Below are positions 1 through 60,843 of a DNA stretch of 64,000 bases, piece by piece (positions within the stretch are counted from its first letter, which is position 1; every line of letters begins with the position of its first letter). Position numbers and translations under genes: made by a program. The notes beneath the pieces were generated by a model. That model did not search any database. It was not told where the DNA came from and was given only the letters and a program-made list of their open reading frames with translations. Source of the stretch: Dictyostelium discoideum (taxonomy: Eukaryota); assembly GCA_000004695.1 (NCBI GenBank), contig CM000155.2, forward strand, positions 544,001-608,000, in the 5' to 3' direction.

Positions 1-131
1 TTATTTAATAATTGACTCCATAATCCATTGGGTGTTAAATCACCTTTTAAATTTGGAAATCTAAAACCTATTCCGATTATTGCAACTTTATTACAATTTT
101 CATTACTTTGATATTTATTTTTATAATCCAT
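1..131 (-). CDS. Partial CDS (N-terminal roughly 43 codons) of a second type I polyketide synthase paralog. The ATG is at complement(129..131) and the gene continues leftward out of the window.
   Basis: The minus-strand translation is MDYKNKYQSNENCNKVAIIGIGFRFPNLKGDLTPNGLWSQLL. This is near-identical, including a 60-nt identical DNA stretch, to the N-terminal KS exon of the complete PKS at 9466-9580. Confidence 0.8.
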   Translation of the reverse strand, partial: MDYKNKYQSNENCNKVAIIGIGFRFPNLKGDLTPNGLWSQLLN

Positions 132-12338: not shown

Positions 12339-13876
12339 TTATTCTTCACTATTTGAAGATTTAAAAATATTAAAACCATCAATTGAAGTTGAAATAGCAA
12401 CATGAGGAATTTGTGGATGCCAATGAACTTCTTTAATATCATGTTGACCTTGGTGAATAAAGAATAATTGTGGTGGATATTGGAAATCATCATCTGGATT
12501 AGCATTTGCATTTGTAAATTCTTCAGTATCCTCTTCCAAAGAGAAATCCCAAATTGTGACTTGATCATCACTTGAAGAGACGATAACTTGTGACTCTTCG
12601 TATGGGTTCCATTCGATGGAGGTGATAGGACCAGTGTGGTATTTAAAGTCAGAGACTGGTGAATTATCTTTGAAAGCACGTAAATCCCAAACTCTAAAAG
12701 AACCATCATCACAACCACTAACTAAAAGATACTCAACATTTCTACTCCAAGAGATAACATTAACATCGGCAGTGTGAGCCTTTACTGTGATTGCTGGTTT
12801 TGGTTTTCTAATATCCCAAATTCTAACAGTCTGATCGATAGAACAACTTGCAAATACCTTCTCTTCAGATGGTGACCATTGAATATCCTCAACTGACTCT
12901 GTGTGACCTTTAAATGCTTGTGTATCAGTCTTCCATGTTGACTCACTTGCATTGGTAACGAAAATACTATTATTACAATCACCTGTTGCTAAACGACCTG
13001 CAATCTTTGGTGACCAGTCCAATGCATACCCCTCAATCGAATGATTACTAATAGTATGTAATGGTGCTGTTTGTTTTGGTGCTACTGTCTCATTATCCAA
13101 TGCTTTCAAATGATTTGCAATATTCCAAATATAAACACTTCTATTATCTGACCATGTTGCAACAATATTTGATTGTTGATCCATTGACTATTATATTATT
13201 AAATAATATATATATATATATATATATATTAATAAACAATAATAAATTATAAATAATAAATAATAATATGACTTACTCTAATTCTATTTACAGCACCATT
13301 ATGGTTAATAAATGCAAGTTGTAATTCTGGGTCAACATCTTTATCTTCATCATCTTCATCATCAGACTCTTCATCGTCGTCAGAATCTTCGTCATCGTCA
13401 GAATCTTCATCGTCATGTTTTGTTTTATGTAATTGTTTTGCTTTCATAATGATAACTTTATTGTTTTTAGCCTCATCAGCTTGTGTACCTGCTACTAAAT
13501 ACATTGTGTGTGGGTATTTATTACGTTGAGCACCTAATTCATCTTTAATTGGGTGGAATGAAAGACATGGCCATTCAACAGACATTGAATGCATCATATC
13601 GTATGCTGTTGAATCGTAATCTAAGACCTCATCCTCTTCCAATGGGTCAACACCTGCTCTCCATACTTTTTTTGGTCCTTTATCTTCACCATCGTTATCA
13701 CCACCTTCTTCACCACCTTCTTCAATCTCTTCAAATGATTGTTCATCATCTTCGAATGATTCAACCTCATCATCGTTCTCAAAATCATCTTCACCATTTA
13801 CATCTACATTAGTTCCACCAACTTCATCTGATTCTCCAAATTCAATATCTCCAAAACTTCTTTTTTTACTTGACAT
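12339..13876 (-). CDS. grwd1: Glutamate-rich WD-repeat protein GRWD1/Rrb1 homolog. Structure is complement(join(12339..13187,13277..13876)), about 482 aa, with an 89-nt intron (GTAAGT...AATAG).
   Basis: Two minus-strand ORFs (209 aa acidic N-terminus plus 281 aa WD40) join in frame across GTAAGT...AG. The N-terminus is an acidic D/E tract followed by a ...WRAGVDPLEEDEVLDYDSTAYDMMHSMSVEWPCLSFHPIKDELGAQRNKYPHTMYLVAGTQA block that aligns to the GRWD1 family, then WD repeats. Confidence 0.8.
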
Positions 13877-13914
13877 TTTAAAATTTTATTTATATTGATT
13901 ATTGTTGGTTTGGG

Positions 13915-13948
<34 letters not shown>

Positions 13949-14876
13949 CGGTCGTTTTTTTTTTTTTTTTTTTTTTCATTAACGAAAAAAAAAAAAAATA
14001 AAATAAAATAAAATAAAAAAAAAAAAATTATTTTAAAAATCTCATTTTTTAACAAAATAAAGAAATAATAAGCAATATATTATTCAAATAATAAAAAATA
14101 ATAATAATAATAAAAATTAAATCTCTCATTTTTATTATTTCTTTTATTGTAACAAAATAAATTTTTTTATTTTTTTTTTTTTTATTATTTTTTTTTTTAT
14201 TATTTTTTTATTTTTTTTTTTTATTATTATTTAATTCCGATTTTAGTCATTCGCCGATCATCATGTTTAAAATTATTTTTTTTTATTTTTAAACTCAAAA
14301 ATATGGAACTATTTCCATAATAAACATCCCTAAAAAAAATTAAAAAAAAAAAAAAATAAAAAAAAAAATTAAATGAAATTTTAAATAAAAAAAAAATAAA
14401 AATAAAAAAATAAAAAATAAAAATAAATTAAAATTTCATTTAAATTTTTTTGAAATTAAATATAGATATCAACAGAAATTTTAAATAATTTTTTACAAAA
14501 ATGGATATCCACAGCCAACAGATTTTATTTTAATTTTTTTTTTTTTTTTAATATAAATAAATTTTTTTTTCTTTTTTCTTTTTTTTTACTTTTTATAATA
14601 AAAAAGAATTAAAATAATATTAAAAAAATAAAAAAAAAAAAACATATAATTTTTTTTTAATAAAAAAAAAAAAATAAAAGAATAAATTTATTTAACATTA
14701 AAAATTCTAATAATAATAATAAATAATAATAATAATAATAAATAATAATATATCAAAAGATAATTTTTTTTTAAAAAAAAAAATAAATATAAAAAGATCA
14801 TAAAAAAAAAAAAAATTGTTTTTTTTATTTTTAATACATAAAACTGGATTATAGAAATAGTAGAAAAAAAGCAAAA

Positions 14877-14898
14877 ATGGTAAAAGTAAGTATTTTAA

Positions 14899-14929
<31 letters not shown>

Positions 14930-16367
14930 TTCTTTAAAATTAATTACTAATATATATTTTTTTTTTTTTTTTTTTTTTTAATATAAATTTTAAAAGGAAA
15001 AAGAATATTATGAAAGATTAGGTGTTAAACCAGATTGTACAGAAGATGAATTAAAGAAAGCATATAGAAAGATGGCTGTTAAATACCATCCAGATAAAAA
15101 TCAAGGACCAGGTAAAGATGCAGCCGAAGCAAAATTTAAAGATATTAGTGAAGCATATGAAGTTTTAAGTGATCCAGAGAAGAGAAAGATGTACGATAGT
15201 TATGGTTCTGAAGGTATGAAGGAGAGTGGTTTCCATGCATCATCAGCTGAAGACCTCTTCTCACATTTCTTTGGTGCAGGAGGTGGCGGTGGTGGATTTA
15301 GTTTCGGAGGTGGTGGTGGTGATGATTTTGGTGGATTTAGTTTTGGTAATATGGGAGGTATGGGCGGCATGGGTGGCATGGGTGGTGGTCACAAGAAGAG
15401 AAGAAAGGGTGAAGATATTGAACATGAAATGAATAGAAGTTTGGAAGAATTATATAATGGAAAATTAGTTAAGATTTCAATTAGTAGAGATGAAGTATGT
15501 AAAACCTGTAAAGGTAGTGGTAGTAATAAACCTGGTGTAACCACAACTTGTCCAACATGTAATGGTAGTAGATACGTTTTCCAAAAGAAACAAGTGGGTC
15601 CAGGTATGATACAACAAGTTCAAACAGCATGTCACACATGTCATGGTACTGGTGAAAAGATAAAAGAAGAGGATAAATGTAAAGAATGCAAAGGTAAAAG
15701 AGTTATACAAGGTAAGAAGATCGTACAATTCCAAGTCGAGAAAGGTACTAGAGATGGCGAAAGAATCATGTTACAAGGTCAAGGTTCCGAGTATCCAGGT
15801 GTACCACCAGGTGATGTAATCATTACAATTCGTGAGAAACCAAATGTAAATTTCAAGAGAAATGGTGATAATTTAATCTACACCAAACGTTTAAAATTAT
15901 TAGACTCAATCGCTGGTAGTCAATTCATTATAAACACATTGGATCAACGTAAACTTTGGGTCAATCATGAGAAAGGTGATATAATTAAGCAAGGTGATAT
16001 GCGTTACATAGAGAATGAAGGTATGCCAATTAAAGGTACCTCTAGAAAAGGTAAATTAATCATTGCTTTTGATATTGAATATCCATCGAATCTTACAAAT
16101 GATGATATTGAAAAACTCTCTAAAATCTTACCAAAAGCTGCCACCCCTTCTGTTTCAAAATCTGATTGTAAATCGGTTGGTCTCTCAAAGGTAAACTTTA
16201 ATACCAACGAACAAAGTTCTCATGGTGGTGCTGGTGGTGCTTATCAACAACATGGTGGTGCTTATGGTCATCAAAAACAACAACAACAAGGTTTTAATCC
16301 TGCTGATTTTGGTGCTCAATTTGGTGGTGGTGGTCCACAACAAGCACAACAGTGTCAACAACAATAA
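14877..16367 (+). CDS. Type A (class I) DnaJ/Hsp40 chaperone. Structure is join(14877..14885,14997..16367), about 459 aa, with a 3-codon first exon (ATG GTA AAA) and a 111-nt intron.
   Basis: The spliced N-terminus is [38 protein letters not shown], a J domain with HPD. It is followed by a G/F-rich region ([14 protein letters not shown]), four CxxCxGxG zinc-finger repeats and a C-terminal CaaX box (CQQQ) predicting farnesylation. Confidence 0.85.
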
Positions 16368-17000
16368 ACAATTTAAAAAAAAAAAAACTAAAAATATCCA
16401 AAAATATCAAAATACCCAAAAATCTAAAATTAAAAAAAAAAAAAAAAAAATTTCCAAAACTATTATTAAATAAATTTATATAATAATTTTTTCGTTGTAC
16501 ATTTAAAAATAAATAAATCATTGTTAATTTTAAATTTAATTTTTCATTTATATTTTTATTCCTATATAGAAATAATTGGTGTATTTTTTTTTTTTTTATT
16601 ATTTGTTTCCGCCTTTTTTTTCTTAGAATTTGGACCGTTTTTGAAAAAAAAATATTTTTTTTTATTTTTTTTTTCTTTTTTTTTTTTTTTTTTTTAGTGA
16701 ATTATTTTTTTTTAATTTTTTTTTTATTTTTCTTAATGGTATCAAATAATAAAAAATATTATTGTAATATCGAGTAAAAGTAATATTATTCTATTAAGGT
16801 GGTGTTTATAATAAAACTCTATCGCTTAGAAAAAATAAAAAAAAAATAAAAAAAATAAAAAAATTAAAAAAATAAAAAAATAAAAAAAAATAAAAGATAA
16901 AAAAAATAATAAAATTATAATTTTTATAATCAATTCCAAAAAAAATAGAGAATAATAGAAGAGGAAGAAGTAGAGGTGAATAGATAGGTAGGAGTGGAGG

Positions 17001-17044
<44 letters not shown>

Positions 17045-17047
17045 AGA

Positions 17048-20580
<3,533 letters not shown>

Positions 20581-20715
20581 TAATAATAATAATAATAATA
20601 AAAATTTTAAAATAAATTATTACCCCCTTCCCAATTATTTAATAATTAGTTTAATTGATAAAAAAAAGATTTTTTTTTTTTTTTTTTTTTTTGAGTTTTA
20701 TTTAAACTTTAATTA

Positions 20716-21758
20716 TTAAAATAACAAAGAAATTATTAAAATTAATAATAATGAGAATAAAGAATAACTAATTTTTGAGGAGTCATTACAGTATTTTTCA
20801 AATGAATATTTGGTACTTGGACAAGTGTCATCATTGGTACCCAAACTTGTTTGGTAGTATTTACATACTAGTGATCTACAATTTTTAGAAGAACAAGATG
20901 AAAGGGAGAATGAATTACCACCCAAACTGCAATTATATTCATTTAAACAATCATATAATGGTAATAAAACATCTACACGAGTTTTTGGAGAAAACCATTC
21001 ATTGCATTTACTATCACATCCACATTGTTGAAATTGATCGCACACATCGTCATTATTTGTACAATTTCCATTTTGAATTGGTTCAACATATTTTTCACAA
21101 ATATTCTTATTACACTTTAATTATTATTATAAAATTAATTATTTTTGAAAATTTAAATTAGATTTATGTATTTATATTACAATTTAAAATACTTACATAT
21201 AAATCTTGATTAATGTTACAATTTTCATCTGAAACACAAGCACTGCCAAGAACATTTTGGAAAAGATTTTGACAAGTTCCAACATCTTTTTCATTTGAAT
21301 AGGCTTTTTGACAAGATAATGGATGTACACATGGTTCTTCTTTACTATTGAGTGAACAGTTTTTACCTCTTTGAATTCTTTGAGTACAAACTTTATCTTG
21401 ACAATATTGATCATATAAACAATCTTCTTCATATTTACATTCATTAGTTGGATTGGTACAAATATTTTTGGTACATGTAGAGAATTTACTGTAACAATCT
21501 GATTCTTTTTCACATTCATCACCAATTTGAGAGAACTTTGCATTAATACATTTTCCATTTACACAAACTAAACCAATTTCACAAATTCCAAAATCAGTAT
21601 CTGAATTTACAAAACATTCTTCATCCAATTGAGCTGATGGTCTACAAACATAGTTTTCTTTTTTCGTTTCATTAGTATATGGACCACAAACAAAACCATC
21701 ACTCACACAACTTCCTGTGTAAAGGAAATCACTATCAGACTTTTTATAGGTACACTAT

Positions 21759-21797
<39 letters not shown>

Positions 21798-21964
21798 TTA
21801 TGTTTTTAAAAAAATAAATGATTAATCAATTAGTAAATTTTATTCAACTTGAATTAAATTGAAATACAAACTTTTTCTTCATCTTGGAAACATTTCATAC
21901 AACTATCTCCTTTGGTCAATACGATTAGAAATATTAAAGAAATAAATGAAAATAATAATTTCAT
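20716..21964 (-). CDS. Secreted cysteine-rich protein with a hydrophobic C-terminal tail, possibly GPI-anchored. Structure is complement(join(20716..21114,21197..21754,21872..21964)), about 349 aa.
   Basis: Exon 1 encodes the signal peptide MKLLFSFISLIFLIVLTKGDSC. Exons 2 and 3 are dense in Cys (CxxxC spacing, EGF/ecm-like). The C-terminus is ...KISYSLFSLLLILIISLLF. Splice sites are GTTTGT/AATAG and GTAAGT/TTAAAG, and the frames were checked by hand. Confidence 0.55.
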
Positions 21965-22461
21965 TTTTTAATTTTAATTTTTTTTTTTTTGGAAAAAAAA
22001 ATAATAAAATGATTAAATGGTAAAAAAAAAAAAAAAAAAAAAAGAAATAAAAATAAAAAAAAAAAAGAAATCAAAATAAAAAAAATAAAAATAAAAATAA
22101 AATAAAAAGATATTTTCAAAATGATTTTCAAATAAAATAACAAGATTTTTTTTTTTTTTTTTAAAACAAATCAGTAATATTTTTTTTTTTTTTTTTTTTT
22201 TTCAAACTGCCGCCCCAAAAATTGTAAATTTGAACAAATAAATTATGATTTTTTTTTTTAATTTAAATGGATTTATTATTTGTTAAGTTTGAATTGAAGG
22301 CATTAAATTATAACATTTTCCATTACAATCACAACCTTGATCAATTGAACAAACACTTGGATTTACATTTGAAACCTCTGGTTCTACATTTTTTACAAAT
22401 TTTATTTTTATAATAACACTTTTAAAATAAAATAAAATGAAATTAGTAAAATGATTTTTTG

Positions 22462-22504
<43 letters not shown>

Positions 22505-22753
22505 ATTGGTTACTTATAAACCATCACTAGATTTATAAGAACCACCCATACCATTTATTGTTAAAGGTTGACATGTTCCAATTTCTTCGGGGATGGGGAA
22601 ATAATGCTAAAGCATAAAAAATGGTATTGGTTTTAATTTTTAATTTTTTATTATTATTTTTGTCAGAATTTATCTCTATTATTAAAAAAAATTAAATTTT
22701 GTAATTAATTATTTAAAAAGTTTTCTTTTATTGTTATAATTTTTTTATGACCT

Positions 22754-23553
22754 TCAGAATCCAATAATCAAAATAACAGAGAATAATGCCAAAGCATAAA
22801 AAATGTACTGAATGGAATGTTTTGATTGGGCACTAGAGGTAGAATCTGTTGATGAAGTAGTGGTTTTTTCCGGACCGGAACATGGAGTAATATCACTATT
22901 GTATCCTGTTGTGTTAAAAACAAAATTAATTTTATATTGTGGATTATCACTAAAAACTCCATTGAAAAATGATTGTTTGTCAGAGTACAATGAACTAAAT
23001 GTTTTTCCATTTTCTGTTTTAATACTCGAACATGATTCATATAAACCTTGAGCAAAATCAGGATGAAGAATGAAATCAATTTTAACCACTTGAAGTGTTT
23101 GTGTTATTGTCTCAGTTGGTACCATAAATGATTGTTGAAATGGTGAACAAATTGATCCACACCATAAGCTCCAAACATTGGCTAAACATCCTGGACATTG
23201 ACCAAAAAGTGTTTCATTACTTTGAATAAATGTTTTAAGTCCATTAGTTTGATATGTATAACAACATGCTTTTTGTGAATATTCTGGATGTGAAGCTTGA
23301 CATGTTCCTGAAGTAATAGAAACACTGTTATACTAAAAAAAAAAAAAAAAAAAAAACAATTTGTTAATTATGTTTAATTACTTATGGTATTTTGAAAAAG
23401 TAATTCATACTGGAGGAAATTGTGAATTTTTAACAAAAGTTGCATTATTACCAAAAATTGAACATCCTTCAGTTGTATTATAAGGGAATGGTCCTTGTGA
23501 TTTTACTAAAAGAGTAAAACAAAAAAAATAAATAAAAAAAATTAAAATTATAT
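22754..23553 (-). CDS. Secreted cysteine-rich protein with a Ser/Thr-rich stalk and a GPI-signal-like C-terminus. Structure is complement(join(22754..23332,23401..23553)), about 243 aa.
   Basis: Exon 1 is MNLNIILIFFIYFFCFTLLVKSQGPFPY... (signal peptide). The donor is GTATGA and the acceptor TTTTTTAG, with the frame verified. The mature part contains CQASHPEYSQKACCYTY...GQCPGCLANVWSLWCGSICSPF, then TTTSSTDSTSSAQS and the hydrophobic tail FYALALFSVILIIGF. Confidence 0.6.
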
Positions 23554-25330: not shown

Positions 25331-26269
25331 ATGTTAAATAAAATAATATTAATATTTTTTTTAATAAATAATATATTTTCAATAGTTGTTTCCTCAACAA
25401 AATTAAATCCATGGGTTTTTGAGGAAAGAATTAAATTATATGATATATTAATTAATTCAACAAAAGTTGAAATTTTTGGAGATGATAATTTAAATAATTG
25501 TTTTCAAGGTTTTAAAATCCAACTTGAATGGCAAAAAACAACAGGTAGATCAATGATAATTGATAATTCGAATATTAGTGTTAATAGTTGGTGGGGATCA
25601 ATGAACTATTATGAATCAATCATACCATTTATATCTGCTATGAATTTAGGTATTATACAACCACCAATTGAACTGGTTAATATTGGAGATGACAGATTTT
25701 GTACAGACTATTCTGAATGTGATAAAGAGTTAATGGAGCCATGGGATTTATATTTCCAATTTTTAATTAAAATTAAAGATGAAAAGTATAGCTATTCAAT
25801 TCAACAACAAATATTAAAATATAATTGGGATGGACATATGAAAAGTTTAAGTATTGGTTTAAAATTATTTAATGATAAATTGAATTATCTTTCAAAAAAT
25901 GAAATTAAATTCTCAACTGGATTTGTTCATTTTGTTGATATTATATCATTAATTAATTTCAATACAAATTATAGCCAAATTTTACCAATTTTCGATTCAC
26001 TTCCACCAAGAATGTTAACAAATTCTGATCATCCACCATTTTTTAAAGGTTTTACAAGAACTCAAAATTTTTATACTGTATCAGTTTTATCAATTAATGA
26101 ATTACATGAAAATCAAATACTATGGAATTATTTTTTAAATCTTTTAAAAACAAAAACTGAAAATGAAAAATGTCGTGATTTTATAAATCAAGAAATTATT
26201 AATTTTACAAAATACCCTGAATCAACATTAGTTAAATTATTATTAAAACTTTTATTAAATAATTGTTAA
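25331..26269 (+). CDS. Hypothetical secreted protein of 312 aa with an N-terminal signal peptide.
   Basis: This is a single ORF. The N-terminus MLNKIILIFFLINNIFSIVVSS is a strongly hydrophobic signal. I recognise no conserved domain, and the codon usage is typical of the flanking genes. Confidence 0.45.
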   Translation: MLNKIILIFFLINNIFSIVVSSTKLNPWVFEERIKLYDILINSTKVEIFGDDNLNNCFQGFKIQLEWQKTTGRSMIIDNSNISVNSWWGSMNYYESIIPFISAMNLGIIQPPIELVNIGDDRFCTDYSECDKELMEPWDLYFQFLIKIKDEKYSYSIQQQILKYNWDGHMKSLSIGLKLFNDKLNYLSKNEIKFSTGFVHFVDIISLINFNTNYSQILPIFDSLPPRMLTNSDHPPFFKGFTRTQNFYTVSVLSINELHENQILWNYFLNLLKTKTENEKCRDFINQEIINFTKYPESTLVKLLLKLLLNNC

Positions 26270-26693: not shown

Positions 26694-26745
<52 letters not shown>

Positions 26746-27006
26746 GTTATTATTAATTATTATTATTATTATTACTACTAACTAAATCTTCTTCCTCTTC
26801 TTCTTCTTCCTCTTCTTCATCATCCTCCGAGATATTTTTTTTGAAAAAAAAAAAAAATCACCAAAGCGCTGGTGGTAAAAAAAGATTTTTTTTTTTGCCA
26901 GTTAACTTTTAATTATTACCCAAAAAATTTCAACAAATTTTTTTTTATTTTTTTTTTTTTTTTTATAATTTACTTTTTTTAATTTTTGATCAACATTAAA
27001 CATAAA

Positions 27007-27492
27007 ATGGATAACAATTATAATAAATATTGTTCAGGACAGTTAAAAATAATTTCTGATTTTGATAAAATTCAAGAAATATTTCAAATTGTTTTAAAAA
27101 ATCATGTCAATAACCAAGATACAAACGATAATATTAAAATTTTAGATATCGGTTGTTCACATGGTAAAAATTCAATAATTGTCTTAAAACCATTAATTGA
27201 ACAAATTAGAAATAAATGGAAGCCAAATGAAAAAGTAATTGAAATATTTCATTCAGATTTATCAGTAAATGATTTTTCAAAATTATTTAATGAAGTTTAT
27301 CATTTAAATTCATATTCTAATAAAATCAATAATATTTTTACATATGGTATTGGTAATGGATTTGAGAATCAATTAGTACCAGATAATTCAATTGATTTTA
27401 TATTTTCATTTACAACTTTACAATGGGTACCATTTATAGGTAAATATAAATCATTTGAAGGTTCATTATATAATATTTTTTTAAAAATTTAA
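27007..27492 (+). pseudogene. 5'-half copy of a SABATH/Methyltransf_7-like SAM-dependent methyltransferase, truncated after about 155 codons.
   Basis: MDNNYNKYCSGQLKIISDFDKIQEIF...ILDIGCSHGKNSI... matches the N-terminal half of the intact paralogs at 27564 and 31206. Homology ends at ...FEGSLY, followed by a stop and the promoter of the next copy. Confidence 0.6.
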
Positions 27493-27563
27493 TTTATTTA
27501 GTTTATATTTTTAAATTTATTTTTTATTTGTTTAGTTTTTTTTTTTTTTTTTATAAAAATAAA

Positions 27564-28610
27564 ATGGATAATAGTTATAGTAAATATTGTTCTGGACAAT
27601 TAAAAATAATTTCAGATTTTAATAAATTTCAAGAAATATTTAAAATTGTTTTAAAAAATCATGTTAATAATCAAGGTACCCAGGATAATAATAATATTAG
27701 ATTTTTGGATATTGGTTGTTCACATGGAAAAAATTCAATAATTGTATTAGAGCCATTAATTGAAAAAGTTAGAAATCAATGGAAGCCAAATGAAAAAGTA
27801 ATTGAAATATTTCATTCAGATTTACCAGTGAATGATTTTTCAAAATTATTTAATGAAATTTATCATTTAAATTCATATTCAAATAAAATCAATAATATTT
27901 TTACATATGGCATTGGTAATGCTTTTGAAAATCAATTAGTACCAGATAATTCAATTGATTTTATATTTTCATTTACAGCAATACATTGGATACCATTTTT
28001 AAGTGAATATAAATCATTTGAAGGTTCCTTATACATACCAATTACTTATCGTTTACCAGGTTTTGAAAATTATTATAAAGAAAGATTATTAAATGTATTA
28101 AAAAATCGTTATAATGAATTAAAAGTCGGTGGTATTTTTTCATTTAATCTTTTCATTCAAGAAGATCAAGGTAGTGAAAATGAAGAAAAAAGTAAATCAC
28201 TTTATTATTGTTTGAAAAACATTAAAGAAATTCTTAGAGAAATGAGTTATGAATCAATTTTATCAAGAGAAGAAGTTGAAAATATGATTGTTCCAGCCAC
28301 AATTTATTCTAGAGATGAATATCAATATGCAATTGATAAATCAACTAATAATACTGGTCTAAAATTAATTTATGAAAATAGAATAACATCTAATTGGGCT
28401 GATAGTTATCAAGATGATGAATCTTATATTGGTTCACTTGTTGGATTTATTAGTAATTTCATTAAAAATGCAATTAATGGTGATAGTGATAGAGTTGATT
28501 CAGTATTCAATGATTTCAAACAACGTCTACATTTAAAATATAAATTAAATCCAAAAGATTTCCAATTTCATCTTTGCAATTTATATTTATCATTTTTAAA
28601 AGAAAATTAA
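27564..28610 (+). CDS. SAM-dependent methyltransferase, SABATH/Methyltransf_7-like, intact copy of about 348 aa.
   Basis: The SAM-binding motif is ILDIGCSHGKNSI (compare LDLGCSSGPN in the SABATH family). A ...YKERLLNVLKNRYNELKVGGIFSFNLF segment follows. This is a full-length ORF, 85-90% identical to the copy at 31206. Confidence 0.7.
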   Translation: MDNSYSKYCSGQLKIISDFNKFQEIFKIVLKNHVNNQGTQDNNNIRFLDIGCSHGKNSIIVLEPLIEKVRNQWKPNEKVIEIFHSDLPVNDFSKLFNEIYHLNSYSNKINNIFTYGIGNAFENQLVPDNSIDFIFSFTAIHWIPFLSEYKSFEGSLYIPITYRLPGFENYYKERLLNVLKNRYNELKVGGIFSFNLFIQEDQGSENEEKSKSLYYCLKNIKEILREMSYESILSREEVENMIVPATIYSRDEYQYAIDKSTNNTGLKLIYENRITSNWADSYQDDESYIGSLVGFISNFIKNAINGDSDRVDSVFNDFKQRLHLKYKLNPKDFQFHLCNLYLSFLKEN

Positions 28611-29280
28611 ACTTTATAAAAATAAAATTAAAAAAATGAATAAATAATTTTAAGAAAACAAAAAAATAAAGTATATATGAGTTTACAATCACAATATATA
28701 TATATTTATTTTTTTATTTTTTATAAATATTTTTAAAAAAGTAGTCAAAGTGTTGAATTTTTTTTTTTTTTTTTTTTTTTTTTTTGTGTTCACTTGCTGC
28801 AATGATTTTTTTTATTAATTTTATATATTTATTTTTTTATCTATATGAAAAAATAATAATTTAATAGAATTAATTATCTTTTGAATTAGATATGTGGTAA
28901 AAAAAAGAAATTAATGAAAACGTAATAACCACTTTTTTTTTTCTTTTTTCTTTTTTTTTTTTTTTTGGGGATATGAAAATGCTTTTAATACTATATAAAA
29001 AATAAATTTTATACTTTGGGTTTAAAAAAAAATAAAAAAATACCCAACTCAAATGGCAATCTGAATTTTTAATTTGTAATTTATGTAACATTTTAAAAAA
29101 AAAAAAAAAAAAAAAAATAACTTTGTATTTTAAAAATAAATTAAAAACTATATTTATAATAGTTATAAATTAATGAGTATATAATCTTTCCAATGTTTTC
29201 TATAAAGAAAAACTTTTTTCAAGACACATAAATAATTTTTTTTTTTTTTAAACTATTTTTTCTTTTTGTTTACTATAGTA

Positions 29281-29490
29281 ACTTTGGTGGGTTGAAGGCT
29301 GGTGTGAACGAGTCGTGGAATGAGCCGTCCAAGACTGACTCGTCGTCGACCTTGATGGTGAAGGTGTTGTCTGGTCTGATGATCAAGGTGTAGATATGCG
29401 ACACTCTGTCTTTTCTAACCGATGGTTTTGCAGTGATCAATTTCTCTTCGTGTACGTTTGTGATTGGGTTACGATCGTTTAGTTTTATTT
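29281..29490 (-). pseudogene. Isolated roughly 68-codon fragment of a calnexin/calreticulin-family lectin chaperone gene, with no start codon and no flanking exons.
   Basis: The minus-strand translation is NDRNPITNVHEEKLITAKPSVRKDRVSHIYTLIIRPDNTFTIKVDDESVLDGSFHDSFTPAFNPPK. This matches the conserved HLYTLI(V/L)RPDN(T/S)(Y/F)E(V/I) core of calnexin and calreticulin. Codon usage is GC-rich in third positions (GTC GAC GAC GAG...), typical of highly expressed Dictyostelium genes. The surrounding DNA is AT-rich with stops in all frames. Confidence 0.65.
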
Positions 29491-29505
29491 TTAAAATTAA
29501 AATGG

Positions 29506-30514
29506 ATATTAGCTATAATAAATATTGTTCTGAACAATTAAGATTAATTTCAGATTTTGATAAAATTCAAGAAATATTTGAAATTGTTTTAAAAAATCGT
29601 GCCTGAAATCAAGGTACCCAGGATAATAAAAAAATTTTAAAATTTTAGATAATGTTTATTCACATGGTAAAAATTCAATAATTTTATTAGAAACATTATT
29701 GAACAAATTAGAAATAAATGGAAGCCTAATGAAAAAGTAATTGAAATATTTCATTCAGATGCATCAGTAAATGATTTTTCAAAATTATTTAATTAAGTTT
29801 ATCATTTAAATTCATATTTGAATAAAATCAATAATATTTTTACATATGGTATTGGTAATGAATATGAAAATCAATTAGTACCAGATAATTCAATTGATTT
29901 TATATTTTCATTTTCAACTTTACATTGGGTACCAATTTTAAGTGAATATAAATCATTTGAAGGTTCATTATATATACCAATTACAGATTGTTTATCAGGT
30001 TTTGAAAATTATTATAAAGAAAGATTATTAAATGTATTAAAAATCGTTATTATTAATTAAAAGTCGGTGGTATTTTTTCATGTAATATTTTAATTCAAGA
30101 AGATCAAGGTAGTGAAAATGAAGAAAAAAGTAAATCTATTTATTATTCTATGATAAAAGTTAAAAATATTCTAAGAGAAATGAGTTATGAATCAATTTTA
30201 TCAAGAAAAGAAGTTGAAATGAATATCAATATACAATTGACAAATCAACAAATAATACTGGTCTAAAATTAATTTATGAAAATAGAAAAACTTCTAATTG
30301 GGCTGATAGTGATCAAGATGACGAATCTTATATTGGCTCAATTATTTCAGTTGCTGGTATATTCTTTAAAAATGCTATTAGGTGTGATAAGAATAGAGTT
30401 GATTCAATATTAGATGATTTTGTACAACGTCTACATTTAAAATACAAATTAAATCCGAATGATTTCCAATTTCATCTTTGTAATTTATATTTATCATTTT
30501 TAAAAGAAAATTAA
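29506..30514 (+). pseudogene. Decayed SABATH-like methyltransferase paralog with multiple stops and frameshifts.
   Basis: The DNA is colinear with the intact copies, running from the start MDISYNKYCSEQLRLISDFDKIQEIFEIVLKN to the shared 3' end ...LYLSFLKEN*. It is interrupted by in-frame tga and taa codons and by indels. The largest surviving ORF is 80 aa. Confidence 0.7.
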
Positions 30515-31205
30515 ATAAATTATTAAAAAAAATTATTATTTTTATTATTATAATAATTTTTTTTTTTAAAATATATTTATATTTATCATTTTTAAAAGAA
30601 AATTAAAAAAAAAAGTGAATAAATAAATTTTACAAAATAAATTATTTATTAATTTTAAAACAGAAAATATTTTTCCTTTTTTAGTTTTTTCTTTTTTAAT
30701 TTTATTTTATTTATTTTTTATATCTTTCAAATTAAAACTATTCAAACGATGGCTTGAATAAATTTTTTATCAAAATAAAAAAATCACTAAATCTTTTGAA
30801 CATGACATCATAAATTATGTTATAAAACAAAAGAAATAAAAATTAAAATAAATAAATTGGTACCACTATATAATTAAAAATAAATTTTTTTTTTTTTATA
30901 TTCTTTCATTTTTTTTTTAACCACACCACCTTTATTGAATATGTAACTGCTTTTTTAAATATGTAACTGCTTTTTTAATTGAGAAGTTTGGGAAAACTTA
31001 AGGGGTTAAAAAAAAAAAAAAAAAAAAAAAAAACTTCTGTGTATTAAAAATATGTATAAAACATTTTTACATAAAAATTTGATTTGCTTTTTGTATTTTT
31101 GTAAACTTTTTTCAATATTCCATACAATTATTTTTAAAAATATTTTCATAGCACAATTAAATTTATTTCCAAAAGTTAATTTTAGTTTCAATTTTTTATT
31201 TTAAA

Positions 31206-32255
31206 ATGGATAATAATTATAATAAATATTGTTCTGGACAATTAAGATTAATTTCAGATTTTGATAAAATTCAAGAAATATTTGAAATTGTTTTAAAAAA
31301 TCATGTTAGTAATCAAGGTACCCAAGATAATAATAATATTAAAATTTTAGATATTGGTTGTTCACATGGTAAAAATTCAATAATTGTTTTAAAACCATTA
31401 ATTGAACAAATTAGAAATAAATGGAAGCCAAATGAAAAAGTAATTGAAATATTTCATTCAGATTTACCAATAAATGATTTTTCAAAATTTTTTAATGAAG
31501 TTTATCATTTAAATTCATATTCAAATAAAATAAATAATATTTTTACATATGGTATTGGTAATGGATATGAAAATCAATTAGTACCAGATAATTCAATTGA
31601 TTTTATATTTTCATTTACAACTCTACACTGGGTACCATTATTAAATGAATATAAATCATTTGAAGGTTCATTATTAAATATTTCAATTACAGATCGTTTA
31701 CCAGGTTTTGAAAATTATTATAAAGAAAGATTATTAAATGTTTTGCATCATCGTTATAATGAATTAAAAGTCGGTGGTATTTTTTCATTTAATCTTTTCA
31801 TTCAAGAAGATCAAGATAGTGAAAATGAAGAAAAAAGTAAATCAATGAAAAATTGTACGAAAAAAATTAAAGAAATTCTTAGAGAAATGAGTTATGAATC
31901 AATTTTATCAAGAGAAGAAGTTGAAAATATGATTGTTCCAGCCATAATTTTTACTAGAGATGAATATCAATATGCAATTGATAAATCAACTAATAATACT
32001 GGTCTAAAATTAATTTATGAAAATAGAATAACAAGCAATTGGTATTATTGTTATCAAGATGATGAATCTTATATTGGTTCAATCATTGCATTTATTGGTA
32101 ATTTCATTAAAAACGCAATTAATGGAGATAAGAATAGAGTTGATTCAATATTCAATGATTTCGAACAACGTCTACATTTAAAATATAAATCAAATCCAAA
32201 AGATTTCCAATTTCATGTTAGTAGTTTATATTTATCATTTTTAAAAGAAAATTGA
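31206..32255 (+). CDS. SAM-dependent methyltransferase, SABATH/Methyltransf_7-like, intact copy of 349 aa.
   Basis: This is a full-length ORF with ILDIGCSHGKNSI and the C-terminal helical domain. It is the best-preserved member of the array. Confidence 0.7.
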   Translation: MDNNYNKYCSGQLRLISDFDKIQEIFEIVLKNHVSNQGTQDNNNIKILDIGCSHGKNSIIVLKPLIEQIRNKWKPNEKVIEIFHSDLPINDFSKFFNEVYHLNSYSNKINNIFTYGIGNGYENQLVPDNSIDFIFSFTTLHWVPLLNEYKSFEGSLLNISITDRLPGFENYYKERLLNVLHHRYNELKVGGIFSFNLFIQEDQDSENEEKSKSMKNCTKKIKEILREMSYESILSREEVENMIVPAIIFTRDEYQYAIDKSTNNTGLKLIYENRITSNWYYCYQDDESYIGSIIAFIGNFIKNAINGDKNRVDSIFNDFEQRLHLKYKSNPKDFQFHVSSLYLSFLKEN

Positions 32256-32490
32256 ATAAATTTTATATATTGATAAATAAAATTAAATATTTAAATTGAA
32301 TACTTACTAGAATTTATGTTATTAAAAAAATCGATTCTTTTTAAAAAACTGAGTAGAATTTGAAAGCATCAATTTTTAGAAAGCATTGATTTTTTTAAAA
32401 ATTTAAAAGAATTTTTTTCTTTTTATTTGTTTTTAAATTAAAATTATTTGTTTTTAAGTTTTTTTTTTAAAAAAAAAAAAGATTACTAAA

Positions 32491-33525
32491 ATGGATAATA
32501 ATTATAATAAATATTGTTCAGGACAATTAAAAATAATTTCAGATTTTGATAAAATTCAAGAAATATTTGGAATTGTTTTAAAAAATCATGCCAATAATCA
32601 AGGTACAAAGGATATTAAAAATTTTAGAATTTTAGATAATGGTTGTTCACATGGTAAAAATTCAATAATTGTCTTAAAACCATTAATTGAACAAATTAGA
32701 AATAAATGGAAGCCAAATGAAAAAGTAATTGAAATATTTCATTCAGATTAATCTGTAAATGATTTTTCAAAATTATTTAATGAAGTTTATCATTTAAATT
32801 CATATTCTAATAAAATCAATAACACTTTTACGTATGGTATTGGTAATGGATTTGAAAATCAAATAGTGCCAGATAATTCAATTGATTTTATATTTTCATT
32901 TACAACTTTTCATTGGGTACCATTTATAAATCGTTTGAAGGTTCATTATATAATATTGATTTTTCAGATCGTTTACCCGGTTTAGAAAATTATTATAAAG
33001 AACGACTATTAAATGTATTGAATAATCGATATAATGAATTAAAAGTCGGTGGTATTTTTTCATTTAATATTTTAATTCAAGATAATCAAGGTAGTGAAAA
33101 TGAAGAAAAAAGTAAATCAGGTTATTGTATGATAAAAGCTAATCAAATTCTAAGAGAAATGAGTTATGAATCAATTATATCAAGAGAAGAAGTTGAAAAT
33201 ATGATTATTCCAATCGTACATTTAACTAGAGATGAATATCAATATGCAATTGATAAATCAACAAATAATACTGGTCTAAAATTAATATATGAAAATAAAA
33301 TTACAATTGGTCTGATACTCATCAAGATGATGAATCTTATATTGGCTCAATTATTTCAATTATTGGTAATTCTATTAAAAGTTCAATTAATGGTGATACC
33401 AGTAGAGTTGATTCAATATTCAATGATTTTAAACAACGTCTTCATTTAAAATATAAATTAAATCCAAATGATTTCCAATTTCATGTTTGTAATTTATATT
33501 TATCATTTTTAAAAGAAAATTAAAC
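32491..33525 (+). pseudogene. Decayed SABATH-like methyltransferase paralog with a stop after codon 86, an internal deletion and a frameshift.
   Basis: The sequence is colinear with the intact copies from MDNNYNKYCSGQLKIISDFDKIQEIF through ...LYLSFLKEN*. It has gat taa in place of gat tta/tca, a deletion at ...WVPFI-NRLKV..., and a frameshift near 33300. Confidence 0.7.
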
Positions 33526-33636
33526 TTTATTAAAAAAAAAAAAAAAAAAAGATAAAATAAATAAAATAAAAAAAAGTGATATAATAAGAATTTTATTTAA
33601 TTCAATTTTAAGGTTTATCCAAATTGAAAAAAGTAA

Positions 33637-35628
33637 TTAGTTATCTTCATCTTCCTCTTCTTCATCTTCTTCATCTTCATTATTATTTTGTTCAGTATCA
33701 CTACCCATTAAATCAGAAAATCTTGAAGATTTATCTTTTTTTTGTTGTTTTGATTTTCTAGCTTTTTTAAAAGCTTGAGTTTCATGTAAAATTTCATTAA
33801 TTGATTCTTGTTCTTGTTTTTTCTTTTCTTCTTGTTTTTTTAATTGAATTTCAATTGAAGATTGTTTTGGTTGTTGTTTTTGTAATAATTTATCAGCTTC
33901 TTGTTGTTCTAATTTTCTTTTTTTTTCATTAATTGCATCTTGTCTTTCTTTTGCATCTTTTTCTTTTTTTAATTTAATTTTATTAACTTTTTCTAATCTT
34001 TGTTTTTCTTTTTTCTTTTCTTTATAGGCGATTTTTAAGATTTGATCTTTTGTATAACCACTTGTCCACTCTGCAATTAAAGTTTTATCACGAATTTCAG
34101 GCATTCTTGGTAAGTAAAGTAAACCAAAACCTGTTGCTAATAAACCAATATTTAAACGATGAAATACAAATATATAAGGACAAAGATGTTCTTTATAACC
34201 ACGTACATGCGATACCATTGCAATTACACCCTTTTCCATAATTTCACGATCGTTGAATGATATTTTTTTAATTTCTGGTAGGACGTTTGTAACGTTTTCA
34301 GCTTTCACCATCTCTACCAATGGTACTTTTTTAATTTTTAAAAATTCAATATAGGAATCTTCTTCTGGTGAAAGGAAAATCAAAGCATTACCATCACGAC
34401 CCATACGAGCAGTTCTACCAATACGATGAACAAATGCTTTTGGATCTTGTGGAGAATCATATTGAAGTACCCAATCAACATTTGGAATATCTAAACCACG
34501 AGCAGCCAAATCAGTTGATAATAAACAACCATTGGTAGCTTGAGAGAATGAATCGAAAACTTTAATACGTTGACTGTGTGGTGCTTTACCATGTAATGAA
34601 AAGAATGGTTTCCCACTCAATACTTTAACCGATTGAAGTATCTTAAAGAAATAATCAACAGTTGAACAAGTTAGGAAATAAATTATAATTTTATTCTTAT
34701 CAATATGATTTAATAAAAAGTGAACCAATTGATTCAATCTCTCTTCAACAGGTACAATCATATATCTATTATCCAATGTGGTTGGAATTGATTGATCTTC
34801 ATGAGTTTCAATATGTTTAACTGATACTGAAACTTTGAATGGATTACGCATACCAGTTCTTGCCAATTCTTTAACTTCCGATGTTTGAGTTGCTGAAAAT
34901 AATCCAGTTCTACGTTGTTTTGGTAATTTCAATAAAATTGAATTAATTGGTAAATGAAAACCCATATCCAATAATCTATCTGCTTCATCTAAAATTAACA
35001 TTTCAAATTCTTTAAATTTAAATTGTTGATCATTCCTTACAACTCTTGTTAAAAATTCATCAGTTCTACCTGGTGTACCAATTAAAATATTACCACCATA
35101 ATTTTTATAATTAACTAAATCTTGATAAATATCTGTACCACCAATTAATAATAAACTTGAAATTTCAATTTTTTTTTTTTTTTTTTTTTTTTCAATTTCT
35201 TCTTCTTCTTTTTCATTTTCTTCTTCTTCTTGTTCTTCTAATAATTCATCTTCTAAAGTTTTAATATTTTCTAAATCATTTTGGTCATCAATTCTATTTA
35301 AATCATTTAAAAATTCTAATAAAACTTGTTGGATTTGAATTGCTAATTCACGAGTTGGTGAAATAATAATTGATGCTATATCTGTTTTCTTTAGATTGGT
35401 TTCTCTTTTTAAAATTTTTTCAATAATTGGAATTACAAATGCTAATGTTTTACCTGACCCTGTACATGCTTCAACTAATACATCTTTATTTGACATAAAT
35501 AATGGTATAACTGCTGATTGAACTGGCGACATTGATTTAAATCCTAATCTATTAATTGTATTTAATGTACTATCACTTAATTTATTTTCAAGTTTATTCC
35601 AACCACCTGTATCAACTTTACTTGTCAT
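33637..35628 (-). CDS. ddx55: DEAD-box ATP-dependent RNA helicase, DDX55/Spb4 ortholog, 663 aa.
   Basis: Helicase motifs are visible: Q motif region ...FKSMSPVQSAVIPLF, ACTGSGKTLAFVIP, PTRELA, TPGR, LDEADRLLDMGF, SAT, ARGLDIP and HRIGRTAR. The helicase core aligns well with human DDX55. The tail is K/E-rich, and an A27 run encodes poly-Lys. Confidence 0.85.
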   Translation of the reverse strand: MTSKVDTGGWNKLENKLSDSTLNTINRLGFKSMSPVQSAVIPLFMSNKDVLVEACTGSGKTLAFVIPIIEKILKRETNLKKTDIASIIISPTRELAIQIQQVLLEFLNDLNRIDDQNDLENIKTLEDELLEEQEEEENEKEEEEIEKKKKKKKIEISSLLLIGGTDIYQDLVNYKNYGGNILIGTPGRTDEFLTRVVRNDQQFKFKEFEMLILDEADRLLDMGFHLPINSILLKLPKQRRTGLFSATQTSEVKELARTGMRNPFKVSVSVKHIETHEDQSIPTTLDNRYMIVPVEERLNQLVHFLLNHIDKNKIIIYFLTCSTVDYFFKILQSVKVLSGKPFFSLHGKAPHSQRIKVFDSFSQATNGCLLSTDLAARGLDIPNVDWVLQYDSPQDPKAFVHRIGRTARMGRDGNALIFLSPEEDSYIEFLKIKKVPLVEMVKAENVTNVLPEIKKISFNDREIMEKGVIAMVSHVRGYKEHLCPYIFVFHRLNIGLLATGFGLLYLPRMPEIRDKTLIAEWTSGYTKDQILKIAYKEKKKEKQRLEKVNKIKLKKEKDAKERQDAINEKKRKLEQQEADKLLQKQQPKQSSIEIQLKKQEEKKKQEQESINEILHETQAFKKARKSKQQKKDKSSRFSDLMGSDTEQNNNEDEEDEEEEDEDN

Positions 35629-60700: not shown

Positions 60701-60763
60701 TTCTTTGTTTTTTCGGTTTTTTTTTCGTTTTTTTCGTAAAAAATATATTTCCCAAAAACAATG

Positions 60764-60843
60764 TGGAAGATGAGGGACTCGAACCCACGACCCCGGAGGA
60801 TAGAGCCTAAATCTATTGTCTTAACCATCTCGACCAATCTTCC
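60764..60843 (-). tRNA. tRNA-Leu (anticodon UAG), class II with a long variable arm.
   Basis: The minus-strand fold has a perfect acceptor GGAAGAT/ATCTTCC plus discriminator A. The D-stem is 3 bp (GTC/GAC) with a GG loop. The anticodon stem ATAGA/TCTAT carries the loop TTTAGGC. The variable arm is 11 nt, and the T-arm GTGGG-TTCGAGT-CCCTC has one T-T mismatch. Confidence 0.75.

Follow-up and report, generated by a model that had tools for sequence, protein, structure and literature searches.

The SABATH methyltransferases are best described in plants, where SAMT, JMT, IAMT, GAMT, LAMT and the caffeine synthases are encoded by genes that typically lie in tandem arrays with pseudogenes and turn over rapidly in a lineage-specific manner. 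In the plant enzymes, a Gln/Trp pair positions the substrate carboxylate beside the methyl group of SAM. The family is still called 'plant-specific' in recent literature, for instance in one preprint (bioRxiv 10.64898/2025.12.11.693594). FAMT of Mycobacterium marinum (PDB 5f2k, 5f2n, 5f2o) is a non-plant enzyme of the same Pfam family (Methyltransf_7), which esterifies aliphatic acids. Dictyostelium discoideum has one well-established small-molecule methyltransferase that acts on a polyketide, the des-methyl-DIF-1 O-methyltransferase DmtA, and dozens of polyketide synthase (PKS) genes that radiate lineage-specifically (PMC3188802).

We analysed a stretch of 64,000 nucleotides of D. discoideum AX4 chromosome 6, hereafter the window. 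A tblastn search with the c4 protein as query recovered exactly five plus-strand paralogs at 27007-33523, and the open reading frames agree with an earlier note, made from the sequence alone, that had described five methyltransferase-like copies in the same orientation, two of them intact. The coordinates given in that note stand overall, except that c3 starts at 29502 instead of 29506 and that the stop codon of c5 ends at 33523. The array and its flanks are as follows:

25331-26269, plus strand: Leg1-family gene, left flank of the array (Pfam Leg1, E = 1e-65)
27007-27492, plus strand: c1 (DDB_G0291578), 5' half of a methyltransferase gene, 161-aa ORF; homology spans 27007-27477 (aa 1-159)
27470-27485, plus strand: deletion junction of c1, placed by alignment with intact copy 1, spacer and copy 2 of genomes L008 and L002
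27564-28610, plus strand: c2 (DDB_G0291580), intact, 348 aa; coding to 28607, then stop
29502-30514, plus strand: c3, pseudogene; tblastn match 29502-30511 in four reading frames
31206-32255, plus strand: c4 (DDB_G0291616), intact, 349 aa; coding to 32252, then stop
31690-31815, plus strand: crossover interval within c4 (codons 162-204), 126 bp identical in both parental copies
32491-33523, plus strand: c5, pseudogene; tblastn match 32491-33520 in three reading frames
33637-35628, minus strand: SPB4-type DEAD-box helicase gene, right flank of the array (Pfam DEAD, Helicase_C, CTE_SPB4)

The methyltransferase genes of the array are intronless, and their coding sequences are 89-92% identical in pairwise comparisons, far above chance; pairs with c1 score lower (83-87%), the c1 alignment extending into non-homologous sequence. 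Of the intact copies, c4 carries the SAM-binding motif ILDIGCSHGKNSI that had been noticed, and c2 has FLDIGCSHGKNSI. The gene identifiers of the array were not found in searchable paper text.

The SABATH-like assignment of these proteins is confirmed at the level of sequence profiles and of a predicted structure. The array proteins match Pfam Methyltransf_7 (PF03492) with 107-111 bits (E = 1e-31; 107 bits for c2 and 110.6 bits for c4), well over the cut-off of 29.8 bits, and phmmer and profile matches to solved structures are to SABATH enzymes and FAMT only. The AlphaFold (AF2) model of c4 (pLDDT 90.9, pTM 0.91) retrieves from the PDB, with Foldseek, 29 best matches that are all Methyltransf_7 (SABATH/FAMT) enzymes, with TM scores of 0.63-0.77, the next class scoring below 0.47. 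Both c2 and c4 are predicted to combine a class I Rossmann core with a SABATH-type helical cap, and in both the aspartates that bind SAM, D49 and D86 (D57 and D98 of SAMT), are retained, as is the Gln/Trp pair Q12 and W142 (Q25 and W151 of SAMT). D49, D86 and W142 are invariant among dictyostelid homologs, and among 77 homologs the conservation of Y5 and Q12 is 90% or more. As to the age of the family, D. purpureum, P. violaceum, T. lacteum, C. fasciculata and Synstelium have homologs too. The products of the array genes would be cytosolic members of the Methyltransf_7 family that methylate small molecules with SAM as donor.

The three other copies are broken in different ways. The Pfam match of c1 is limited to profile positions 8-122, the protein clusters at 90% with full-length proteins of 350-366 aa from D. 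citrinum and other strains, and a dictyBase curator note describes it as 'missing the carboxyl half'. By position, c1 corresponds to the copy that comes first after Leg1, in the place occupied by the sole copy of D. citrinum. Comparison with L008 and L002 indicates that its 3' half was removed by a deletion of about 1.1 kb, with ATAATA/T-run microhomology at the junction, which fuses codon ~157 to sequence that lies 86 bp before the start codon of c2. Since the 86 bp that follow the end of the c1 homology (27477) are homologous to the sequence that, in other strains, immediately precedes copy 2, c1 is indeed cut at the promoter of the copy that follows it, as had been suggested. The stops and indels reported for the other two broken copies were likewise found. 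Relative to the c4 frame, c3 carries indels of +2, -1, -3, -1 and -34 nt, four of them frame-shifting (+2, -1, -1, -34), and is interrupted by three premature stops. In c5, stretches of 10, 3 and 4 nt are deleted, and a single premature stop (TAA at 32749, codon 87) interrupts the frame. The AX4 annotation holds c5 as a spliced 214-aa model, DDB_G0291586; the sequence P0032 matches c5, and its 'intron' skips the damaged stretch. These lesions are not sequencing errors, because the independent assembly of a near-identical strain, FIT (L001), shows zero mismatches to AX4 over c3 and over c5. Both copies are decayed pseudogenes, and c1 lost its 3' half by the microhomology deletion.

The comparison between strains shows that the array gains and loses copies very quickly, which strongly supports the birth-and-death turnover proposed in the earlier note. 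In seven related genomes, the number of full-length copies in the interval between the Leg1 and DEAD-helicase genes ranges from one, in D. citrinum, to nine or more, and every one of the seven also has fragments or pseudogenes there; in strains FIY and FIR, fragments are more numerous than intact copies. The Leg1 left flank is conserved in all seven genomes compared, with Leg1 directly upstream of the first methyltransferase copy in L001, L002, L005, L006, L007 and L008; the DEAD-helicase gene comes after the final copy in L001, L004, L006, L007 and L008. A neighbour-joining (NJ) tree of the copies mixes orthology with lineage-specific clades; c2 is identical in FIT and groups with copies of FIW and FIY. 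FIT, which is near-identical to AX4, has nine copies in the array, and two of these account for c4: the 5' part of c4 agrees with FIT copy 4 at 41/41 informative sites (31230-31689) and its 3' part with FIT copy 8 at 56/56 (31816-32254), giving a clean, in-frame chimera with all 97 informative sites concordant and no private changes. The strain comparison shows an array that evolves by unequal crossing-over among copies that are about 90% identical, together with small deletions and point lesions; c4 is most probably what a deletion of about 5.7 kb between copies 4 and 8 left behind, fused in frame.

That c4 is a hybrid of two FIT copies points to an unequal-crossover deletion or, less likely, to a collapse of the nine-copy array over the 126-bp identity in the 2005 AX4 Sanger assembly, which would make both the five-copy array and c4 artefacts. 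Such a collapse would be suggested by the close likeness of AX4 to the nine-copy strain (four substitutions in about 10.5 kb outside c4 and none in the 3 kb downstream), and it would also leave c4 devoid of private changes. The join sits exactly in the longest stretch identical between the parental copies, but this does not discriminate between the two, because NAHR too resolves within identical stretches. Against a collapse, there are 97 differences between the parental copies within 1 kb, so that spanning Sanger reads of 600-800 bp would need to be chimeric themselves, and five other independent assemblies also differ in copy number; we therefore regard an artefact as unlikely, although it deserves to be taken seriously. 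A much fainter prospect is that the whole family here is a relic in decay that no longer has a function, and whose intact ORFs have merely been spared so far. Three of the five AX4 copies are dead, including c1, the positionally ancestral one, fragments predominate in FIY and FIR, and dN/dS, at 0.5 overall, is high by the standards of an enzyme. However, at least one intact copy persists in at least six of the seven genomes (the single copy of D. citrinum has no internal stop), pairwise dN/dS between intact copies has a median of 0.48 and is below 1 in 98.7% of pairs, falling to 0.36 in the catalytic core, and the predicted SAM- and substrate-binding residues are invariant in 22 intact copies; moreover, neutral copies about 10% diverged would have gained stops, as c3 and c5 did. 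The intact copies are under moderate purifying selection on the core, with constraint relaxed in pocket-aligned loops: variable patches that align with SABATH substrate-pocket segments have pN/pS values of 0.8-0.95. Because no region of the intact copies exceeds a pN/pS of 1, adaptive diversification is not demonstrated, and the description of the family as substrate-diversifying stays unproven.

As to the reaction, the conservation of the carboxylate-clamping Gln/Trp pair makes O-methylation of a carboxylic acid, yielding a methyl ester, the most likely activity of c2 and c4 by analogy with the plant SABATH enzymes. It stays unproven, because the N-methylating SABATH branch also has conserved Gln and Trp. 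The xanthine-alkaloid N-methyltransferases (CkTcS 6lyh, XMT 2eg5, IpCS3 8uzd) equal the carboxyl methyltransferases in fold and profile scores. In the alignment, His141 of c4 precedes the conserved Trp (LHW), a feature common to many SABATH enzymes, N-methyltransferases included. Nevertheless, most of the characterised members of the family are carboxyl O-methyltransferases, as is FAMT, the sole characterised microbial one, Gln12 and Trp142 are conserved, which argues against N- or S-methylation, and we know of no purine-alkaloid chemistry in dictyostelids. Methylation of nitrogen, sulfur or another nucleophile, as by the caffeine/theacrine-type enzymes, hence seems rather improbable. The array had also been proposed as a candidate set of tailoring enzymes, in view of two neighbouring type I PKS loci:

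1874-9580, minus strand: complete type I PKS (KS-AT-MT-ER-KR-ACP by Pfam), one intron at 8759-8947
51950-54979: the second proposed PKS locus, a fragment that lacks KS and AT

According to this proposal, the methyltransferases would esterify a free acid released by the first PKS or by a PKS once encoded at the second position. A distance of 17.4 kb separates the array from the complete, highly reducing PKS upstream of it, and this PKS is bracketed by methyltransferase copies, since a sixth copy (DDB_G0291680) lies about 7 kb beyond its other end, as does the FIT ortholog of this copy, which is disrupted and lies about 7 kb past the 3' end of the PKS ortholog. In strain ACTFIW, a PKS and a methyltransferase copy even stand head-to-tail, 640 bp apart, inside the array, and FAMT, which is the closest relative among solved bacterial enzymes, has fatty acids as its substrates, compounds similar to the acids of reduced polyketides. 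Yet about eight unrelated genes separate the array from the complete PKS (CAF1C/RBBP4-like WD40, DnaJ, EB-module, NPC1_N, Leg1 and others), the second locus proves to be only a fragment, and the ACTFIW PKS, whose reading frame is broken, adjoins the array in no other strain and is only 49-60% identical to the PKS of the window, its closest relatives (85%) being DDB_G0271530 and DDB_G0295667 on chromosome 2. No PKS was found within 10 kb of the single D. citrinum copy in the interval or of the D. purpureum paralog examined, and the four D. purpureum methyltransferase contigs all differ from those on which the listed PKS genes of that species lie. With dozens of radiating PKS genes in the genome, chance proximity to one is not rare. 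The tailoring proposal is accordingly not supported and appears quite doubtful; the nearby PKS genes are better viewed as neighbours in a rearrangement-prone region than as demonstrated partners.

The best explanation as a whole, to which we assign a probability of roughly three in four, is that of a SABATH/FAMT tandem array that turns over by unequal crossing-over, contributes to a lineage-variable metabolism and merely neighbours the PKS genes. The family would then serve a dispensable, 'ecological' metabolism rather than a housekeeping role.

Compared with known systems, the array resembles the plant SABATH genes, with which it has in common PF03492, the two-domain fold (TM 0.63-0.77), the SAM-binding Asp and the Gln/Trp carboxylate clamp, as well as the organisation in tandem with pseudogenes and the rapid turnover; it differs in its amoebozoan host and in an identity of only 15-17% in structure-based Foldseek alignments. 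Its core motifs (GxNS, HxD, GxSFYxQ) are closer to the bacterial FAMT type than to the plant type. Mycobacterial FAMT is the best Foldseek match (E = 4e-20) and the second-best profile match (E = 1e-22), and shares variants of the Rossmann-core motifs with the array proteins, but it is encoded by a single bacterial gene, not an array, its identity to the array proteins is 15-16% with a profile alignment that spans positions 44-247 only, and the cap region and C-terminus of the Dictyostelium proteins align better with the plant enzymes. DmtA has on a polyketide the role that the earlier note proposed for the array; unlike the array enzymes, it is a COMT-type O-methyltransferase and no member of Methyltransf_7, methylates a phenolic hydroxyl, and is encoded not by a variable array but by one conserved gene, which has an ortholog in D. 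purpureum. Finally, the radiating dictyostelid PKS genes (PMC3188802) represent a different enzyme class with no demonstrated functional coupling to the array, but they resemble it in their link to specialised metabolism, in their species- and strain-specific gain, loss and fragments, and in sharing the same neighbourhood.

With the protein of the intact copy c4 as query, tblastn located exactly five methyltransferase (MT) copies in the window, which belongs to chromosome 6 of Dictyostelium discoideum AX4 and has a G+C content of ~20% throughout:

Methyltransferase copies in the AX4 array
27007-27477, plus strand: c1, truncated, amino acids 1-159 only; open reading frame ends at 27492
27564-28610, plus strand: c2, intact, 348 amino acids
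29502-30514, plus strand: c3, disrupted
31206-32255, plus strand: c4, intact, 349 amino acids
32491-33523, plus strand: c5, disrupted

The coding sequences are 89-92% identical at the DNA level, and identity reaches the background level within ~100 bp of both ends. Measured against the reading frame of c4, c3 has three premature stops and indels of +2, -1, -3, -1 and -34 nt, and c5 has a single premature stop and deletions of 10, 3 and 4 nt. These lesions are real, since the independent assembly of the near-identical strain FIT shows zero mismatches to AX4 over c3 and c5. AX4 thus holds two intact, two disrupted and one truncated copy, i.e. tandem paralogs mixed with pseudogenes and fragments; the five-copy array described in the earlier note is correct save for trivial coordinate offsets, as judged from tblastn, lesion mapping and the independent assembly.

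The three annotated array proteins match DDB_G0291578, DDB_G0291580 and DDB_G0291616 exactly, all of them labelled 'hypothetical protein' (3,602,379-bp record). Reference models have also been drawn over pseudogenes by splicing: DDB_G0291586 (214 aa) lies over c5 (32491-33523), its 'intron' bridging the damaged part, and DDB_G0291680, a copy outside the window, is probably another such case. The new strain annotations model c3 and c5 likewise (199-aa and 270-aa models).

The spacers hold debris of their own. Between c2 and c3, a 55-aa open reading frame (29273-29440, minus strand) is a calreticulin/calnexin gene fragment (positions 152-203 of the 369-position Pfam Calreticulin profile, E = 1e-13); it occurs in FIT too and appears to be a stray pseudogene piece trapped in the array. 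A (TAT)n microsatellite of ~27 units (26694-26774) separates the Leg1-family gene on the left flank from c1, and long poly-A/T runs are present in all spacers; sequence of this type could favor slippage or microhomology deletions like that of c1 (see below). A scan of the array region for tRNA genes and tandem repeats returned nothing relevant.

The SABATH-like family assignment proposed from the sequence alone held when the proteins were compared with Pfam. Indeed, c2 and c4 score 107.1 and 110.6 bits against Methyltransf_7 (PF03492; SAM-dependent carboxyl methyltransferase), whose curated cut-off is 29.8 bits, and cover profile positions 11-329 of 335; the match of c1 is limited to the N-terminal third. 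In PDB sequence searches, an array protein matched only FAMT, a mycobacterial fatty-acid O-methyltransferase, and enzymes of the SABATH type. For c4, an AlphaFold2 model derived from 77 homologs (pLDDT 90.9, pTM 0.91) was compared with the PDB by Foldseek: ranks 1-29 are all family members (among them FAMT, CkTcS, XMT, DXMT, IpCS3, IAMT, LAMT, GAMT and SAMT; TM 0.63-0.77 over ~350-380 alignment columns), and generic class I methyltransferases come next, after a sharp drop (TM <=0.46). The model thus predicts a class I Rossmann core carrying the family-specific alpha-helical cap.

The residues agree with the fold. D49 (DIGCSHGKN) and D86 (SDLPINDF) of c4 align with the SAM-binding D57 (DxGCxxGxN) and D98 (xDLPxNDF) of SAMT, W142 aligns with SAMT W151, and Q12 sits in a conserved N-terminal Y-x3-S-x2-Q motif that aligns with the same motif in GAMT. 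All four residues are invariant in the dictyostelid alignment; among the 77 homologs, D86 is invariant and Q12 at least 90% conserved. In the published SAMT structure, the Gln25/Trp151 pair hydrogen-bonds with and positions the substrate carboxylate. Conservation of these clamp residues makes carboxyl O-methylation the most likely predicted chemistry of the array enzymes, N-methylation being a less probable alternative. Our literature search found no biochemical data for any dictyostelid family member.

To follow the array through other genomes, we inventoried, with the c4 coding sequence, the stretch bounded by the Leg1-family gene (25331-26269) and by the gene for the SPB4-type DEAD-box helicase (33637-35628, minus strand) in six further assemblies:

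Copies in the Leg1-helicase interval (totals are full-length plus fragmentary copies)
AX4: 2 intact, 2 disrupted, 1 fragment; total 5
FIT: 5 intact, 2 disrupted, 2 fragments; total 9
FIW: 5 intact (one inverted, beside a PKS), 1 disrupted, 1 fragment; total at least 7
FIZ: 7 intact, 1 disrupted, 4 fragments; array split by DDE transposases and an LTR element; total at least 12
FIY: 1 intact, 1 disrupted, 4 fragments; total 6
FIR: 2 intact, 0 disrupted, 5 fragments; total 7
D. citrinum: single copy, free of internal stops; total 1

The strains other than AX4 thus carry 1-7 intact and 2-5 disrupted or fragmentary copies, and D. citrinum one copy only. Note that locus-tag numbers were rejected as a guide to how genes are ordered in the new assemblies, neighbours in FIW (ACTFIW) being tagged 000319 and 000336, which are non-consecutive. 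In FIZ (ACTFIZ), a D. cf. discoideum strain, an LTR retroelement (with RVT_1, RNase H and integrase) and several genes for DDE_Tnp_4 transposases, over 13424-22795 of locus L005 and 195-1499 of locus L004, part two to three Leg1-side copies from six helicase-side copies.

In a neighbor-joining tree, c2 groups with FIW and FIY copies, as expected of cross-strain orthologs; the FIZ copies form a clade of their own, so that lineage-specific expansion or gene conversion is also at work. By sequence clustering, c1 belongs with the copy that comes first in other strains and species. The pattern agrees with birth-and-death evolution in which local expansion or gene conversion plays some part, and the presence of orthologs across lineages means that the array has not been fully homogenized by concerted evolution.

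FIT is almost the same as AX4 in sequence: upstream of the c4 crossover the two differ by four substitutions in ~10.5 kb, and the 3 kb downstream show none, yet the FIT array holds ~5.7 kb of extra sequence. AX4 c4 is identical to FIT copy 4 at 41/41 informative sites over 31230-31689 and to FIT copy 8 at 56/56 informative sites over 31816-32254, with no private change. Unequal crossing-over in a 126-bp identical stretch (codons 162-204) probably made this in-frame hybrid, in which the Rossmann core comes from one copy and the cap with the C-terminal half from a second; because the parental copies differ by ~10%, a deletion from nine to five copies is the parsimonious direction. The rival explanation is that the 2005 reference collapsed the array and that its five-copy structure is artefactual. 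We consider such a collapse unlikely, albeit plausible enough that the AX4 structure calls for long-read checking. Under a genuine recombination, c4 would be a clean natural case of unequal crossing-over making an in-frame hybrid enzyme gene.

The truncation of c1 has a different origin. In other strains, the copy that corresponds to c1, the first one past Leg1, has its full length; c1 falls in the same 90% cluster as the D. citrinum proteins. In both AX4 and FIT, ~1.1 kb is gone, corresponding to the 3' half and most of the spacer, and 86 bp of c2 upstream sequence remains; the deletion is bounded by ATAATA/T-run microhomologies. BLAST of the AT-rich spacers against all loci was dominated by low-complexity matches and was informative only for this 86-bp c1-c2 spacer. 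The birth-and-death turnover proposed in the earlier note is therefore borne out, and the comparison adds to it polymorphism in copy number, the hybrid gene c4 and the microhomology deletion in c1.

The same note had also proposed that the array may supply tailoring enzymes to neighbouring type I polyketide synthases (PKSs). The features that bear on this link are as follows:

PKS-related features
1874-9580, minus strand: complete KS-AT-MT-ER-KR-ACP synthase (the window PKS)
51950-54979, plus strand: 1009-aa open reading frame aligning solely with residues 918-2405 of the full PKS
3-131, minus strand, at the far left edge of the window: 43-aa match, 79% identity, to a PKS N-terminus
L003 1680-9362 (GCA_054859355.1): ACTFIW_000318, full-length type I PKS paralog inside the FIW array, 85-87% identical to AX4 chromosome 2 PKSs

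In AX4, the window PKS and the array are not tightly clustered: 17.4 kb and about eight unrelated genes lie between them (CAF1C/RBBP4-like WD40, DnaJ, several unknown open reading frames, EB-module, NPC1_N and Leg1). The alignment of the 51950-54979 open reading frame being limited to residues 918-2405, this second locus is devoid of KS and AT domains. The neighbourhood is strewn with PKS fragments.

In FIW, a PKS and an MT copy lie 640 bp apart within the array, ACTFIW_000318 being head-to-tail with the inverted MT copy and another MT fragment lying farther on. That PKS is found within the array in ACTFIW only, its frame breaks near L003 4139, and it is 49-60% identical to the window PKS versus 85% to the chromosome 2 genes DDB_G0271530 and DDB_G0295667; orthology with either window PKS was thus ruled out (36-60% identity versus 85%). 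No PKS was found within 10 kb of the single MT copy of D. citrinum, nor within 10 kb of the D. purpureum paralog examined, whose neighbours are two zinc-ADH genes, and no listed PKS of D. purpureum lies on any of the four contigs that carry its MT genes. A conserved PKS-MT cluster therefore finds no support in seven genomes and D. purpureum. Considering the intervening genes, the KS/AT-less fragment, the absence of linkage in D. citrinum and D. purpureum and the different, frame-broken PKS of FIW, treating the array as part of a PKS cluster is unsupported, and we regard a functional partnership as improbable. PKS genes are known to radiate lineage-specifically in dictyostelids (PMC3188802). 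The name pks39 was rejected for the window PKS, as a paper gives pks39 as DDB_G0290943, on another chromosome.

A sixth MT copy, DDB_G0291680 (252-aa spliced model), lies outside the window on the far side of the window PKS, ~5-6 kb left of position 1, a location inferred from its ortholog in the near-identical strain FIT. That ortholog (L010 10001-11046) is frame-disrupted, with a first stop at aa 78, and lies ~7 kb past the 3' end of the same PKS; its greatest similarity is to copy 8 of the array, an indication of a recent dispersed duplication or of gene conversion. In this region, we conclude, genes of specialised metabolism are especially prone to duplicate and decay. Farther right, a GC-richer (30-35%), strongly GC-skewed block (55998-60572, minus strand) encodes an endonuclease/reverse-transcriptase protein (Exo_endo_phos and RVT_1) and ends ~190 bp from a tRNA-Leu(TAG) gene (60763-60843, minus strand); it looks like a TRE-type tRNA-gene-targeted non-LTR retrotransposon. 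A second, similarly skewed block spans 62324-63889.

The intact copies are under constraint: among 22 of them, dN/dS has a median of 0.48 and lies below 1 in 98.7% of pairs (c2 versus c4, 0.65). Regional pN/pS values are 0.36 for the Rossmann core and ~0.3 for the C-terminal part. Three short patches (residues 141-166, 201-222 and 244-252) stand higher, at 0.8-0.95; in the SAMT alignment they coincide with the substrate-pocket segments around M150/W151, I225/W226 and Y255. Because no region exceeds a pN/pS of 1, the patches are compatible with diversifying specificity or, equally, with relaxed constraint.

An exhaustive HMMER scan returned 665 relatives. Outside the D. discoideum species complex, the next are four paralogs of D. 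purpureum (~39% identity) and a divergent second D. cf. discoideum paralog (34%); further dictyostelid homologs occur in Polysphondylium violaceum, Tieghemostelium lacteum, Cavenderia fasciculata and Synstelium. The second paralog, ACTFIZ_000307 (L011 10001-16935; 34% identical to c4), is followed 1.3 kb downstream, on the same strand, by a full-length ABC transporter gene, and the two could be a methyltransferase-exporter pair. The D. purpureum gene DICPUDRAFT_82327 (L009 11073-13972, GL871229.1) is a singleton between two tandem zinc-type alcohol dehydrogenase genes, flanks that differ from the Leg1/DEAD context, so that it does not share the position of the array. Recent horizontal transfer was ruled out: base composition is that of the host, and homologs occur in all major dictyostelid groups, so the family is old in Dictyostelia.

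The locus is thus an uncharacterised, fast-turnover amoebozoan member of a known enzyme family: an old branch of SABATH in Dictyostelia that grows and shrinks as fast as strains of the main model species diverge. Our literature search found no paper pairing SABATH, Methyltransf_7 or the array gene identifiers with Dictyostelium. Social amoebae may use this dictyostelid-wide branch to turn fatty-acid-like or other acids into methyl esters that serve as volatile or otherwise ecologically active compounds; presence/absence and hybrid variation within the array would then give closely related strains different chemotypes, and c4, with its SAM-binding core from one copy and its substrate-binding cap from a second, would be a natural domain swap whose specificity may be altered. 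We give this proposal a probability of about one in five. The two intact AX4 genes, together with natural variants of one to nine copies, offer a tractable way into amoeba chemical ecology.

Accounts of SABATH enzymes usually describe them as specific to plants, with hormone esters, floral volatiles and caffeine as products. Beyond dictyostelids, the nearest matches of the array proteins are plant, brachiopod and protist proteins at ~25-30% identity, and the core motifs of the array proteins resemble those of bacterial FAMT; on these sequence comparisons, the array proteins are best described as SABATH-like PF03492 members and not as members of the plant clade.
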